Part shown: in pieces, positions 48,001-60,000 of the stretch
How positions within the stretch are numbered: the stretch's first letter is position 1
How the letters are laid out: each line of letters opens with the position of its first letter
Sequence record: AF125520
Strand: one strand, 5' to 3'
Length of the DNA stretch: 61,670 nt
Source of the DNA: Escherichia phage 933W
Position numbers: made by a program

Positions 48001-51000
48001 TATGGAGCAGCAGCGACTCCAGTTGCAGAAATACAACCAGCGACGGCTTGAGTATAACGATATGATTGCCCATAGCCAGCCACTAATGGAAGCGCTTGGA
48101 AAAGCAATTGAGGCTGGCGATCAGGAGGCTGCAACGCGTCTGTTCGGGCAGCTGCCAAAGGGACATCCATTAATTCTTATGTCAAACGAAGGCTATGCAG
48201 CGAAAGCGGGTCAGGCCGTGATCAACCTGCAAAAAATCTTTGGTGATAAGCCGGACATGGCGATCGATTCGCTGAATACCCCGGAAAATCTCGATGTGCT
48301 TTCCGGCGTGTTTGCCCCGGAACTACAACAGCGTATTGGCATGCCTGATTCAACCGGGGACAAAACGATAAAAGAGGCCAGGATTGGCAGTATCGTACCA
48401 GCGCAGCAGGAAGGGTACGTACTTATTGGCCTTGATCTCACATACAGCGATGGCTCCACCGCGCATAAACCTGTAACAGAATACGGCAGTGCGCACCCTG
48501 ATGATCAAACCGTGCTGGCGATACCCGTTGATAAGGCTATCGCTCAGGTCAGGGATCGCAGCAAATTTGCAGAGATATCGAAAAATTATGGTTATTTTAT
48601 GCCGAAGCAGCAGGGACTTTCTCTGAAAGAGCTTCAGAAGGGGGCCAGCAACGTAGCGGCGGACGCGATCAAGAATGGCGGTAATGCTCAGGCTGCGGTG
48701 GATGAATATTATGCTGCGACTGGTTCACAACCGCATCAACAGAAAATTCAGCAACAAAAACTTCAGCAACAGGTTATCAACTGGGCGGGAGATGATCCTG
48801 ACAAGCTGTCATTTGCCAGAAATGTAGCGGCCCGTCAGCCTGAAATGCTGGAACCTCAGAATCAGAAATTGCTGGAGAACGGGTATGCGAATTTTCTCCG
48901 TATTCAAAAGGCCAGGGGGGAACAGGCCAGAGATGAAAGTGCTTCATCTGCATCTCAGTTTATCCGTGGACTGAAACAGAATTACGCCCAGTAATTCACG
49001 ATATTCCATTAATACCATTTCCTGATGCCCGGCCATTGTGCCGGGTTTTTTTATGGAGTCTGTATGGCCTATTCAGAGGAACAGCGTCCTGAGGCGCAAC
49101 TCGGTAACCAGAATCGTAACAGCCTGAACATTCAGCAACCCGGCGAAACTGACAGCTATGAAGCATTTTTCTCTGATCCGAATCGCTGGAAGGATAACAG
49201 TACGTCGTTCAGCCTGGGCGATGTATTGCCAACAATGGGTAAAGGTTTCGCCCAGTCCGTCCGGGGAACAGGGGAAATGGCCCGTGGACTCGGTGATGCG
49301 ATGATTCAGAGCCCGGTAAAAACAGGGGCGCGTATTTTAAATGAGTTCAGCCGTATGGGGCTGCCGGGTGTCGCAACTGTGCAGGATATTTTTGCCGGTG
49401 GCAGCAGGGGGGCTGATGAGGTCATCGATACCCTGCCTGATGGCAAAAACGCGGTTACTGATATTGTCGGTAAAGGTCTGAAGGCAACCGGTAAGGCTGT
49501 CAGTGATGGTGCCAAAGCCACTGATGAATGGCTGACCGGTAAGATGTCGCCGGGTGCAGTTCGTGCGCTGAATACGCCGATGACCGAAGGCTATAATGAT
49601 TCTGCGGTCTGGGTGGCGAAGGGTGTAAACCTGATTGGTGCGCTTGTACCTGATATGGTTGCTGGCGGTGTGGCTAGAAAGGTGGGTGATGTCACACTGC
49701 GAAAAATGCTGACCGCCGGGCTGGAGAAAAAATACATCGCGGCAGGGATGCAGCCGGAAAGAGCCACGGCACTGGCAGCAGAAGCTGTCGATAAAAAAAT
49801 GCCGGATTTATTCCAGGCGGGCCTGATCACCCATTCCACTGTAAGTGCACAGGGGCAGAGTGCAATGGCGGCAGCAGATGCTGTTCTTAATGCTGATTAC
49901 TCTGAGCTGGCGCAGTCACCGAAATTTCAGCAGACGTTTTTGTCCATTGACGCCGACCCGCAGCACGCACAGCTTACTGATCGCCAGAAAATGGATCTGG
50001 CAAAAGAGCGTGTTGCCGATGAGGTGCGCGCGCAGCTGGCAACCGATCCTGAATTGCTGGCTGTGAATGCCATGGCGGCAAAACTGGGTGACGCACAACT
50101 GTTTAATCTGGTGACACGAGGCACAGCGAAGACCGTTAAAAGCGGCATTGTCAGAAATGCCACGGAACAGGGGGCGATTAATGCGGCGCAGGGCGGCTAT
50201 TCACGCTATCAGGAAAACACGGCATTGCGTGAGACCGCCGGAATGGGTGTGTCACCGTGGGAGGGCGTGGCTGACGCAACGATCGAAGGTGCAGCCTTTG
50301 GTGCTGCGATGGGGGCTCCATTCGGTGCGGTTGCCGGATATCGTGGCAGACGTCAGGCCGCAGAAGAAACCGCCATGCGTGATGCTGAAACCGTGCAGCA
50401 GGACGACGCAGCCCCGCAACCAGAATCTGTTGATCCGGTGGCGCAGCAGCGTGAATCCATGCAGGGCATGAATCGCGAGCAGCTTCTGGAGCAGTATGCT
50501 GATGCGGATATGGCAACAGAGGGTGACGCATCCGCAGCTCATCGCCGGGAAGCTGCCAGCCAGTTGTTGAATGAACTGGACGAACAGACGAAGCGACAGG
50601 CTGTGATGAATGAGCTGAAGGCGAAGCCGCGTTCTGAACTGCTTGAGGAATACCGCAGACTCAGCCAGAAAGAGGGGCGCACCGAGACTGAAGAACAACA
50701 GTTTCAGGCAATACGAGAAGTCATTCGCCCACAACAGGAAGTGACGCCGGAAGCACAGTCACAGCCTGAAAATGCGGAGGATGGTAACGGGAGCATTTAC
50801 CCGACGGTGCGGTTCCGGGACCCGAATGAAGTCCGCATTGAAATTAACGGGAATGGTGCGTCCAGACCAGCGGAACGCATTGAGAAGGTGCGCCCGGACA
50901 ACCGTTATTTCACGGATGAGAAAAGCGCCATGGGGAGTGATGTTTTCCGTAATGCCGCCGCCACCGGCCTGAAACCGTCCGTAGTGAAGAAAGGCGAGAA

Positions 51001-57000: not shown

Positions 57001-60000
57001 TGACTATATCTCCGGAGGGACAGGGCGCTTCATTTCCAAAACCACGGATGCGGCGGTGAAATCGCTGAATGGTATTGATATACCGGAACAGCAGGTGCCC
57101 TTCCTGGGGAAAATTTCGGGGGAGGTGATGCCGTATGCAGACCAGCAGAAGATGTACGACCGGATGACAGAGATTGCGCAGTATCACGCAGAGCTGAAGA
57201 GTCTGACCGGTGCAGAAAGAACGGCGTTCATTGACGAGAACAACGGAAAATTGTCGATGAACGGGCTTATGCAGGATACCCGGAAGAGACTGAAGGATTT
57301 GCGTAAACAGCGTGATGCCATTTACGCCGACAGTACTCTCAGTCTGGCGCAACAGTCGGCGATGGTGAAATCGGTAGAGCGGGATATGAAAATTGCCGTG
57401 GATCGGTTTAACCGCGAGTACAACAAAAAAGTGGGAGTGGATTAACAGAAATGGCCCCGTACGGAAGTGCGGGGCTGATTAAGAAATAAACACTCATTGA
57501 CCTGTAATAACCGGAGCTATTAACATATAGTCAGAAGAGCATTTCATGTGATACAGAGAGCCGATTTATGTTTAATGAAGAAAAAGTTGCGCAAATGGCA
57601 GCGTATTTGCTGAAAAAGCATGGCGGATCTATGCGTTTCATTAAGCTGAAGCAGCAACGGTAATGGCGAATAGCATTTATGAGCAAAATAATCTTGATAT
57701 GTTATTAGGCGATCTGATGTAACCGGGATGATGTTCACCCCTTATCGCCGGGGAACAATACCGGCAATCAGAATTGCGGATGGAACTATTCAGGCCCACG
57801 ATGATATCGATGAGGAGTTTTTTCAGCCAGTATTGGATGGCTTTCTTATATCCAAATATACGCCATTTGACATCCTCCACGCCCTGAAGGACGGGGTTTT
57901 ACAGCGCACCGGATAAGATTCGGTGTTTTGTTGAAAAATACTGTGATAACAAACAGAAAACCCGTCAGTAAGACGGGCTTAGCAAGCTGGGACGGTTACT
58001 TTAATAATTTCAGTGCCTTTACATCCACTTCAACACTGCTCAGGTCTTTATCAATTTCACCCTCAATTCTTACTTTGTCTTTCGGAGAAACATTCTGACC
58101 GGCCCATATGCTGTCATCGATATCCGTGACAATTGTCCCGCTATTGTCACGAAACTCATAACGTTCATCACCCACTTTTTTAACGATGCTCCCTTCAAGG
58201 ATAACCCATGCATCATCCTTCAGTTCTTTTGCCTGCGCTACTGTTGAACGCTCTGCTTCAGGCCCTTGGAAACCGCCCTGCTGTGCAAAAGCGCCAAAAG
58301 ACACACCAGAAATAAGTGCTGCAATCAATACCTTTTTCATTCATAGTCCTCTTTCAGAGATGAACATTCAAACAGCATTTTCAGTATGGTAAAGCGCGGG
58401 TGCGTTGAGGATGCCTGACACATCAGAGGTGGCGGGAGATTACTCCCCCGCTTGGTCTCTTACTTCTCAGATTCGTAGTCTACGAAGACAGCGACCTCCG
58501 TCTGACCGGTTCGGATTCGCACCTCGCAGAGGTCTTTCCTCGTTACCAGTGCCGTCACTATGACGGTTAAACAGATGACGATCAGGGCGATTAACATCGC
58601 CTTTTGCTGCTTCATAGCCTGCTTCTCCTTGCCTTTCGGCACGTAAGAGGCTAACCTACATGTGTTCAGCATGGATTGAGCCTCAGATTAATGTTAAGCG
58701 TCTTGCCGGACGCGTAATGTTAACTGGGGCTTTTCTCTATCTGCCGTTGGTGTTCATGCCCGAGGCAGATAGCCTCAAGCACCCGCAGCAATTCTACTTA
58801 ACTCTCCTTTTCCCGCAAACCGTTTTTATCTCCAGCGACAAATCGAATACACAACCAGCACCACCGCCATTACTGTTCCTACATTTGCGAATGCTTCAGG
58901 CCAGGTCATTGATTCACCTTCTGCTCAATATTTTTAAGGTCATTTTCCGCATACAGTATTGCAGTTCTTGCTGCCCGCAACCGTGCTTTGGTGTTCTTTT
59001 CTTCACGCTCGAGGCTGGCAACAGATTCTCGGAGCTGATCGTGTCTGTTATGAAGCTGTCTAATCTCTCTCACCACAGCCTCACCATCGTTCGCACACCG
59101 CAGAACATACTGAAAAGGGTCCACAACACATCCGCACTGCAAGCACAGGATAACGTGATCCTGTTCATGAACCTCAATGGCCCGATGCTTACAGCTCTGT
59201 TGTGTGTAGTTTTTTCTGCCAGTTACTGTAATGTTCAGCAGCTTCTCTTCATCGCGCTTTGGCTGCACCAGTGTGATGATATTATCGCCTTCATTTTCCA
59301 TCAGTTCACCTCCTGCGGCGGTTCTGGTAGCGGCATCCAGTGTGACGGTTTCCACGACGCACCAGGAATTATCCACCCATCATTAGCGTCAGGATGCCCC
59401 GGGATGTAAGTCGCCCACTTCATTCGCCAGTCACCTTTCCTGTCAAACTCCACGGCAACAAGAACGGCTGTTTTGGTATCCGGCATTCGCTCACTACAAC
59501 TTATCCAACCATCCGGAGTTACCGGAGAGTTGCCAGACAGCGCATTCTGCAACCGTTCCAGCTTAACGTATTCCTGAACCCTGTTTCCGTCGCACGCCTG
59601 AAGCCATTGCTCAGCCTTTTGCGCATCAGTGTGAAAGGCACAAGTGCGACCGTCATCAAATTGCATTTCGTAGAGGTTAGCAATCTGTTCAAACTGCGTG
59701 TGTGGCAACTTGTAAGTTTGGCTTACGAGTTCGGCTTCCAGTTCTGCTATGCGCTTCTCTGATGCTTCAAGTAACGCCTGCTTATCGCGTAGCGCTTCTT
59801 CCAGTTCAGCAACATGGCATTCACTATCAATAAGGTTGTTCTGTGCTGCTCCCAGCTCCACTCTCAGCTTCCCAACCGTAAGCGCAATCTCCTCGTTCTC
59901 CTGGTCGCGGCGTTTGATGTATTGCTGGTTTCTTTCCTGTTCATCCAGCAGTGCCAGCACGGTAGCCGGGTTAGCCTCTGCTATGAATTCAGCGTTTGCA

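Follow-up and report, generated by a model that had tools for sequence, protein, structure and literature searches.

A giant late gene of the Shiga toxin phage 933W encodes a probable encapsidated ejection protein with an N4-like N-terminal module

The giant gene at the end of the late genes

In this work we analyzed the genome of Escherichia phage 933W (sequence record AF125520; the whole stretch of 61,670 nucleotides is referred to as the window) with respect to one very large plus-strand gene. A preliminary description made from the sequence alone had placed this gene last among the late genes and assigned to it a product of 2793 amino acids (aa) with two HExxH motifs. The listing of open reading frames (ORFs) of the window shows a single open frame at 49025..57445 on the plus strand, and translation from the ATG at 49064 indeed gives 2793 aa followed by a stop codon, so that the gene extends over 49064..57445. 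It takes up about 14% of the genome and lies on the same strand as, and after, the terminase, portal, capsid and tail genes. On the plus strand it is followed only by a 61-codon ORF, after which genes of the minus strand begin, in agreement with its proposed place as the last late gene.

The start codon at 49064 was preferred over the in-frame ATG at 49025 because it is preceded by GGAG and because a terminator-like hairpin lies within the upstream extension. This GC-rich hairpin (49027-49046) and the T run that follows it (together 49027..49053, plus strand) fill the 13-codon extension between the two ATG codons, directly 5' of ATG 49064. A recent GenBank record also annotates ATG 49064 as the start. 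This strong hairpin is located between ORF79 and the giant gene, about 10 bases 5' of the ribosome site of the latter, and the phi24B gene models of 2806-2811 aa run through it. The giant gene is presumably expressed by way of late transcription under Q antitermination.

Over its 8.4 kb the gene shows 100% nucleotide identity to records of Shiga toxin (Stx) phages (AP004402, CP111102 and AP000363), including Stx2 converting phage I, EDL933-Stx and VT2-Sakai, and it is at least 90% identical in 184 short-tailed Stx phages. Judged by its sequence, the window is a 933W/Sp5-type Stx2 phage. The gene corresponds to Sp5 ORF80/ECs1242 and is the orthologue of phi24B gp47, which is 97% identical to the 2793-aa protein; Sp5 ORF80, its 933W orthologue and phi24B gp47 (Sepvirinae) represent one and the same gene. 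The object itself is therefore already known, both from the literature and from current annotation, where the product is named 'LPD5' or 'LPD38 domain-containing protein'. Published accounts of ORF80/gp47 end at 'tail assembly, function unknown' and at 'proposed ejection protein'. In the older record AP004402 the gene is broken into 19 'hypothetical protein' features, and in phi24B antisense ORFs (vb_24B_50c, 51c and 52c) have been annotated inside it. These split and antisense annotations look like artefacts of a long gene with high GC skew.

Domain organization and the N-terminal module

To obtain a domain map, the protein was searched at the Pfam cut-offs, and tiles of the sequence outside the Pfam matches were searched separately. 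LPD5, LPD1, MuF_C and LPD38 were found. All four families are defined on polyvalent proteins, and their matches far above the cut-offs bear out the earlier suggestion that the architecture is that of the polyvalent proteins of phages and conjugative elements. In line with this, several unrelated effector-type domains are combined in one chain that is encoded among late and virion genes. The tiles outside the four Pfam domains gave no significant family match.

The first 470 residues form an N-terminal module (49064..50473, plus strand; conserved core approximately aa 100-470), which was delimited by an exhaustive HMMER search and by its homology to phage N4. It contains the sole strongly hydrophobic 20-residue stretch that a Kyte-Doolittle scan detects in the protein, aa 181-200 with the sequence AVWVAKGVNLIGALVPDMVA (49604..49663, plus strand). 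At its end lies a glycine-zipper-like segment, aa 406-433 (50279..50362, plus strand). The Pfam Gly-zipper matches of this segment are weak (E 0.04-0.09) and below the cut-offs; a G-rich consensus is retained at this place in 13 giant proteins.

A profile of the N module built from 72 sequences matched N4 gp50, the virion RNA polymerase (vRNAP) of that phage, at aa 189-445 with 38.8 bits for the full protein and 51 bits for the excised segment, whereas 4000 global or local shuffles of the N4 segment reached 9.1 bits at most. In all other collected sequences the profile matched N-terminal positions only. Comparison by hhalign gave 96.8% for the N module against N4 alone and 98.4% (E 7.6e-15) against a small N4-like family, with aa 186-419 being paired with N4 aa 229-438. 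The alignment begins with aa 186 opposite N4 aa 229, so that most of the hydrophobic segment at aa 181-200 lies inside the aligned region, which on the N4 side takes in most of the predicted membrane-spanning helices (N4 aa 224-278). A single-sequence search with the N4 N-terminal domain retrieved none of the giants at E 1e-3, and the homology is thus visible by profiles only. Searches from the N4 N-terminal region by Iyer et al. (PMC5512222) likewise gave N4-type phages only, and N4 is absent from the discussion of this protein in the phi24B preprint (10.64898/2026.04.10.717836). On the basis of these profile alignments we conclude that the N module and the lipid-binding domain at the N terminus of the N4 vRNAP are homologous, a relationship that is new here. 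The isolated N4 domain inserts in nanodiscs and has been proposed to be the inner-membrane anchor of vRNAP (PMC13434306).

The N module is followed by a charged and Pro-rich low-complexity linker, aa 471-884 (50474..51715, plus strand), for which the Pfam tiles gave no family match. The strings RGLPSPD, REGLPAPD, SLPRTV and SLPEL, which the preliminary description had listed as a Pro-rich region in the middle of the protein, are present at aa 810-856 (nucleotides 51491-51631), but their position at about 30% of the length is not the middle; the Pro content of aa 701-900 is 11-12%. Next comes a helical domain together with LPD5 (aa 885-1200; 51716..52663, plus strand; LPD5 at aa 1051-1200, Pfam E 6.5e-45). 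When the structural model of this region is averaged over blocks of 10 residues, the predicted local distance difference test score (pLDDT) is 84-97 for most blocks between model residues 40 and 370. LPD5 and LPD1 (PF18799 and PF18796) are recorded together in many of the listed relatives, which also contain the first metallopeptidase described below.

Two metallopeptidase-type domains and a predicted RNase

Both HExxH motifs are located exactly where they had been described, HEWFH (aa 1284-1288) at 52913..52927 and HEIIHH (aa 1551-1556) at 53714..53731 on the plus strand, and both turned out to be family-conserved metal sites in homologue alignments. They are not chance matches. The composition of the protein leads one to expect 0.035 HExxH motifs, and two or more motifs were found in 0.05% of 2000 composition shuffles of the 2793-aa protein (P ~0.0005).

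HEWFH is located between LPD5 and LPD1. In an alignment of 24 homologues with less than 75% identity, H1284, E1285, W1286 and H1288 are invariant, as are H1263, E1265, D1291, E1375 and E1382. The region aa 1182-1440 (52607..53383, plus strand) shows the HExxH and downstream Glu of zincins and has a zincin fold that resembles lethal factor and MtfA. The NCBIfam model NF041907 (CLCA_X) aligns with aa 1182-1437 (E 9e-44), its 149.8 bits lying below the curated cut-off of 260, so that this region is, by its alignment, related to CLCA_X but not a member of that family. Since the CLCA_X alignment spans aa 1182-1437, we regard the first metallopeptidase as one unit of about 250 aa with LPD1 (aa 1361-1440) as its C-terminal part. 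Iyer et al. 2017 (PMC5512222) described a phage-type metallopeptidase clade with a His that ends strand 2 and an Asp three residues past HExxH, and AH(1263)YE and HEWFHSLD(1291) fit this clade. In that work LPD1 and LPD5 are separate domains of unknown function, whereas here LPD1 is the tail of the first zincin unit. In sequence searches of the Protein Data Bank (PDB), neither the complete protein nor the profiles of the two metallopeptidase domains gave a meaningful match.

The second motif lies in a metallopeptidase-like domain at aa 1480-1665 (53501..54058, plus strand), which was defined by homologue alignments and is covered by no Pfam model. The relatives of this domain carry H-E-x-x-x-H-x-G and a conserved Glu about 52-55 residues downstream. 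E1552, a His of the HH pair (1555/1556) and E1607 are invariant in 13 giants, and the first His of HExxxH is kept in 12 of 14 sequences. The earlier reading of both motifs as metal-site motifs thus holds but needs refinement for the second one: HEIIHH allows both the HExxH and the HExxxH spacing, and relatives read HExxxH. According to these alignments the domain belongs to the HExxxH clade of polyvalent-protein metallopeptidases, a clade also described by Iyer et al. 2017 (PMC5512222).

Further downstream, the Pfam domain MuF_C (PF18819; aa 1750-1839, conserved from approximately aa 1722; 54311..54580, plus strand) was found with E 1.3e-17 and 64.2 bits, as compared to a cut-off of 27.6. By definition this family represents an RNase domain of the phage BECR-fold (PBECR) type. 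K1745, H1752, H1801 and an AS.YG motif are conserved, and H1752 (in K..H) and the Ser of AS.YG are at least 80% conserved among 33 sequences. The weak fold matches of the region include RelE/ParE; the confidence of the model is low. As far as its conserved residues indicate, MuF_C is a BECR-fold RNase and not a peptidase.

These results bear on the proposal of the phi24B preprint (10.64898/2026.04.10.717836), which considers the protein as a trans-periplasmic conduit only, with a 'MuF-C metallopeptidase' digesting peptidoglycan. Short-tailed phages do need a channel across the envelope, and the N module resembles a membrane-binding domain. However, the peptidoglycan-degrading role of MuF-C is contradicted by the definition of the family as a BECR-fold RNase, by the retention of the family His and Ser and by the weak RelE/ParE fold matches. 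Furthermore, no lysozyme, transglycosylase, amidase or M23-type family was detected by Pfam, tiles included, and the zincin domain and the putative second one are similar to endopeptidases like MtfA and lethal factor. A separate LT_GEWL transglycosylase is part of the cargo in some relatives, suggesting that wall cutting is optional and absent here. A function as a conduit only is thus rather improbable in our view.

The tripeptide YSR occurs four times in the protein (50198-50206, 53408-53416, 54101-54109 and 54701-54709; P ~0.0008 by shuffling), and the last three copies are found in linkers just after the first zincin/LPD1 unit, the HExxxH domain and MuF_C, respectively. These three linker copies are part of [FL]-[YF]-S-R motifs at aa 1448-1451, 1679-1682 and 1879-1882, and an aromatic-Ser motif is retained at the three linker positions in relatives. 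These sites are possible candidates for self-processing or docking. The linker that connects MuF_C to the C-terminal module, modeled with low confidence, contains the short motif GLQLP (aa 1851-1855; 54614-54628), which most of 33 diverse sequences retain.

The C-terminal module and the relatives of the giant protein

The remainder of the protein (aa 1883-2793; 54710..57442, plus strand) is a conserved unit of about 900 aa, defined by its relatives and by AlphaFold2 modeling, which includes LPD38 (aa 2476-2681; 56489..57106, plus strand; E 7.8e-48). The AlphaFold2 model of aa 1843-2793 (pLDDT 82.9, predicted template modeling score 0.79) consists mostly of helices with one small beta subdomain, as expected from the long helical C-terminal part noticed earlier. 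A fold search with this model gave no real match in the PDB, and fold comparison showed that many viral polyvalent proteins end in the whole C-module fold, where it is found beside transglycosylase (LT_GEWL), RelA/SpoT or methylase domains. On the sequence level, the C-terminal 951 aa are shared at 33-58% identity and about 95% coverage by relatives with differing upstream domains, namely ADP-ribosyltransferase, pyrophosphatase, methyltransferases or LPD3. Little beyond the C module is present in some shorter records (about 980-990 aa), which were taken as deposited and may be partial. Cultured phages with the C module are podophages of about 40-62 kb from Vibrio, Burkholderia, Ralstonia and Bacillus.

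The exhaustive HMMER search with aa 1-480 yielded 103 cluster representatives. Three homologue searches returned no protein above about 1,660 aa, and the seed with the N4 N-terminal domain gave four proteins. In the long relatives (2000-4665 aa) the match to the N module lies at or near the N terminus, and the HExxxH domain was detected in 52 of the 63 giants. In the seven giants that also gave matches to both C-module halves, the HExxxH domain is located 23-65 residues upstream of it, the exception being P0269 with 272 residues in between. The cargo found across the relatives comprises methylases, helicases, ADP-ribosyltransferase, pyrophosphatase, RelA/SpoT and lytic transglycosylase, and giants sharing the N module carry methylase, helicase and ParB-type cargo. 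The relatives thus appear to have a common frame of N module and HExxxH domain, joined in the seven nearest by the C module of the 933W type, with varying cargo in between. This arrangement is new here.

The 'DarB-like' giants of Bcep22-like, Ralstonia GP4-like and Vibrio podophages (about 60 kb) share the C module with 27-41% identity and 83-99% coverage, and the Vibrio giants share the N module too. One such protein, gp69 of Burkholderia phage JC1 (4515 aa), is virion-associated and encoded by the last forward-strand gene of the virion block, a layout that according to the JC1 paper is the same in the Bcep22-like and Ralstonia relatives of this phage. JC1 gp69 has a HepA-type (SNF2) helicase match and the N-module giants have methylase, helicase or ParB-type domains, whereas the 2793-aa protein has none of these.

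The name 'DarB-like' on these Burkholderia and Ralstonia phage proteins raises the question of whether the 933W protein is an anti-restriction protein of the DarB type that guards the incoming DNA in cis. A PHROG termed 'DarB-like antirestriction' matches aa 2351-2681, the N-module giants carry methylase and helicase domains like P1 DarB, and P1 DarB is also a large head-packaged protein of a temperate coliphage. However, the region matched by the PHROG is the shared LPD38 part and not the catalytic domain of DarB. Pfam searches including the tiles revealed no methylase or helicase domain in the 2793-aa protein, both of which are present in P1 DarB, and the two proteins share no module: profiles of the N module, the zincin, the HExxxH domain and the C module gave no match to P1 DarB or its partners DdrB, DarA, DdrA, Hdf and Ulx. 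Finally, the giant gene is essential for any plaque or lysogen, whereas the P1 dar genes are conditional. A DarB-type function is therefore highly improbable. Counteraction of host defences in a more general sense, as envisaged in the preliminary description, would be suggested by the family context only. PADLOC defence models gave no match, and as the gene is essential for infectious particles, the role of its product is not limited to defence evasion.

Virion proteomics and genetics of the orthologues

In the phi24B preprint (10.64898/2026.04.10.717836) gp47 was found in purified virions and LPD5, LPD1, LPD38 and MuF-C were listed; the protein gave no density in cryo-electron microscopy (cryo-EM), and an encapsidated ejection protein was proposed. 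The same preprint gives the length of gp47 both as 2811 aa and as '>3,000 amino acids'. According to its supplement (10.64898/2026.04.10.717836), gp47 accounts for 10,962 spectra as compared to 17,998 for the major capsid protein, so that packaging in virions is shown for an abundant, 97% identical orthologue of the 933W protein. The counts for gp47 are highest in four gel slices above the peak slice of the 724-aa portal, and its peptides stem from aa 19-41, the Pro-rich linker, both metallopeptidase regions, MuF_C and aa 2667-2683 (10.64898/2026.04.10.717836). As peptides were obtained from every sampled region, the whole gp47 chain is packaged, mostly as a very large species. Scaling of the spectra per residue to 12 portals gives about 20 copies of gp47, to be taken as an order of magnitude only; where copy numbers are known, this scaling mostly deviates by no more than about two-fold, gp62 being an exception.

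Deletion of Sp5 ORF80/ECs1242 by Mondal et al. 2016 (PMC5155283) abolished plaques and lysogens, with the phage still being excised, and the defect was complemented in trans. The mutant contained normal DNase-resistant DNA and normal-looking heads but did not bind anti-tail-fibre antibody (PMC5155283). The authors classed ORF80 as a tail-formation gene and noted a match to the AAA+ family COG1483 (PMC5155283).

The protein might accordingly be a structural or assembly protein of the tail, either tape-measure-like or an energy-using assembly factor. The DNA-filled heads without anti-tail-fibre labeling, which were also obtained for three other 'tail' genes, point in this direction, as do the reported COG1483 match (PMC5155283) and the position of the gene at the end of the tail gene block. 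However, gp47 is not among the modeled phi24B tail chains and was seen neither by cryo-EM nor by negative stain, although it comes near the capsid protein in spectra. Searches of Pfam, NCBIfam and PHROGs revealed no ATPase or tape-measure family, and the domains are those of packaged effector proteins. The antibody result was given as 'data not shown' and also fits tails that detach when an internal protein is missing. We therefore consider a tail structural or assembly protein unlikely. The specific idea of a COG1483 AAA+ ATPase was rejected, as the protein contains no Walker A motif ([AG]xxxxGK[ST]) and matches no ATPase family. As for a tape measure, no such family was found in Pfam or PHROGs, and the protein is absent from the phi24B tail model. 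Of the two alternatives named in the preliminary description, tape measure or ejection, it is ejection that is better supported, whereas the tape measure finds no support.

Proposed function of the giant protein

Taken together, the giant gene likely encodes an encapsidated polyvalent ejection protein of the short-tailed Stx phages, with its domains connected by flexible linkers. Starting from the packaging of the phi24B orthologue and the essentiality of the Sp5 gene, we infer ejection, membrane anchoring, self-processing and enzyme targets as follows. Many copies would be packed in the T=9 head, most likely via the conserved C-terminal module of 900-950 aa. Upon release of the tail needle the protein, either unfolded or in the form of a bead-like chain, would exit via the tail, and the N module, as a homologue of the injection domain of the N4 vRNAP, would insert in or bind to the cell membrane and anchor the ejection complex. 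The cargo, i.e. the LPD5-zincin-LPD1 unit, the HExxxH metallopeptidase and the BECR-fold RNase, would then act in the cell, where the peptidases probably cleave the chain itself or host proteins and the RNase probably acts on RNA. The N module, the HExxxH domain and the C module would fulfil an essential structural task, with the intervening cargo varying among phages.

Several points weigh against this proposal. Injection into the cell is a proposal for the 2793-aa protein as well as for its orthologues, and the peptidase, RNase and membrane activities are predictions from sequence, with a model of low confidence in the case of MuF_C. The loss of tail-fibre antibody binding in the mutant would not be expected for a pure cargo protein, and phage P22 still assembles particles without its ejection proteins. 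The mutant phenotype therefore suggests that part of the protein may act structurally or in assembly at the portal or tail, the conserved C-terminal end being most likely the part needed at the portal for tail completion. The C module has no detectable similarity to the C-terminal domain of the N4 vRNAP or to other N4 ejection proteins, and for this reason its role in encapsidation is proposed by analogy only. Finally, gp47 is found mostly as a very large species, which gives no indication that it is processed within the virion.

Comparison with N4 gp50 and other known systems

A close parallel to the proposed ejection protein is found in N4 gp50 (3500 aa). Both proteins are giant, present in multiple copies, encapsidated and invisible in virion maps, both are encoded by the last gene of the structural block, and both have a beads-on-a-string architecture in which a homologous N-terminal domain, membrane-binding in N4, is followed by a long low-complexity linker and a metallopeptidase-type domain precedes a large C-terminal part. 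They differ in their cargo: N4 gp50 has an RNA polymerase module, in place of which the 2793-aa protein carries peptidases and an RNase, and no T7-like polymerase module or other polymerase family was found in it by Pfam, NCBIfam and PDB sequence searches. The C-terminal parts show no detectable sequence similarity, and profiles of the C module, the zincin and the HExxxH domain gave no significant match to N4 gp50-54, gp57 and gp67. Furthermore, a mutant N4 virion devoid of vRNAP is mentioned in the N4 paper (PMC13434306), whereas the giant gene is needed for tail-fibre-positive particles.

T=9 capsids are found in both the phi24B group and N4, and Mondal 2016 (PMC5155283) assigned an N4-type capsid domain to the capsid protein of Sp5. 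Together with the N-terminal domain common to the two giant proteins, these observations fit a distant common origin of the structural modules. The polyvalent proteins described by Iyer et al. (PMC5512222) are likewise large multi-domain proteins encoded among late genes, with LPD5, LPD1, MuF_C (PBECR) and LPD38 and with metallopeptidase domains of the same two variants, the strand-2 His/Asp clade and the HExxxH clade. Stx phages and 933W are unmentioned in that work (Iyer et al. 2017, PMC5512222). The device reported in the ΦXacm4-11 preprint was dismissed for comparison, being an unrelated, T7-like injection device.

A wider hypothesis, which we advance tentatively and consider conceivable rather than probable, is that the Stx giant, the 'DarB-like' giants of podophages of about 60 kb and the N4 vRNAP constitute one old family of head-packaged, membrane-anchoring ejection proteins with a shared N-terminal injection domain and exchangeable cargo. 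The Stx cargo would then be two metallopeptidases and an RNase acting in the newly infected E. coli cell, and the HExxxH domain and the C module would be needed for loading and tail completion.

Neighboring genes

Four plus-strand ORFs of 243, 148, 83 and 421 aa are located directly 5' of the giant gene (46277-48994). Their counterparts in phi24B are gp51, gp50, a small protein and gp48, respectively, and the 421-aa ORF is Sp5 ORF79, which is essential. These phi24B proteins are all present in virions, and none is among the chains modeled by cryo-EM. The 83-aa protein shows a Gly-zipper match (E 9e-6) and the 243-aa protein has a Gly-rich C-terminal tail. By analogy to N4 gp51 and gp52, the four products may be co-ejected partners of the giant protein; pairwise comparison of these virion proteins with N4 gp51, gp52, gp53 and gp54 revealed no similarity. 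At some distance, the segment 38001-40000 has the maximal G+C content (0.60) and AT skew (0.29) of the window and may contain a collagen-repeat tail fibre gene.

Conclusions

Beyond what has been published on this protein, the present analysis adds the link to N4. Two published readings are corrected, namely the suggestion of an AAA+ ATPase and the view that MuF-C is a metallopeptidase which degrades peptidoglycan. For Sp5, a system in which this gene (ORF80) is deleted and complemented is already in place. The comparison with N4 predicts a membrane-anchoring N-terminal domain, ejection as a string of domains and a cargo that would be exchangeable between phages. The Shiga toxin genes of enterohaemorrhagic E. 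coli reside on the phages in question and are transmitted by them to new hosts.

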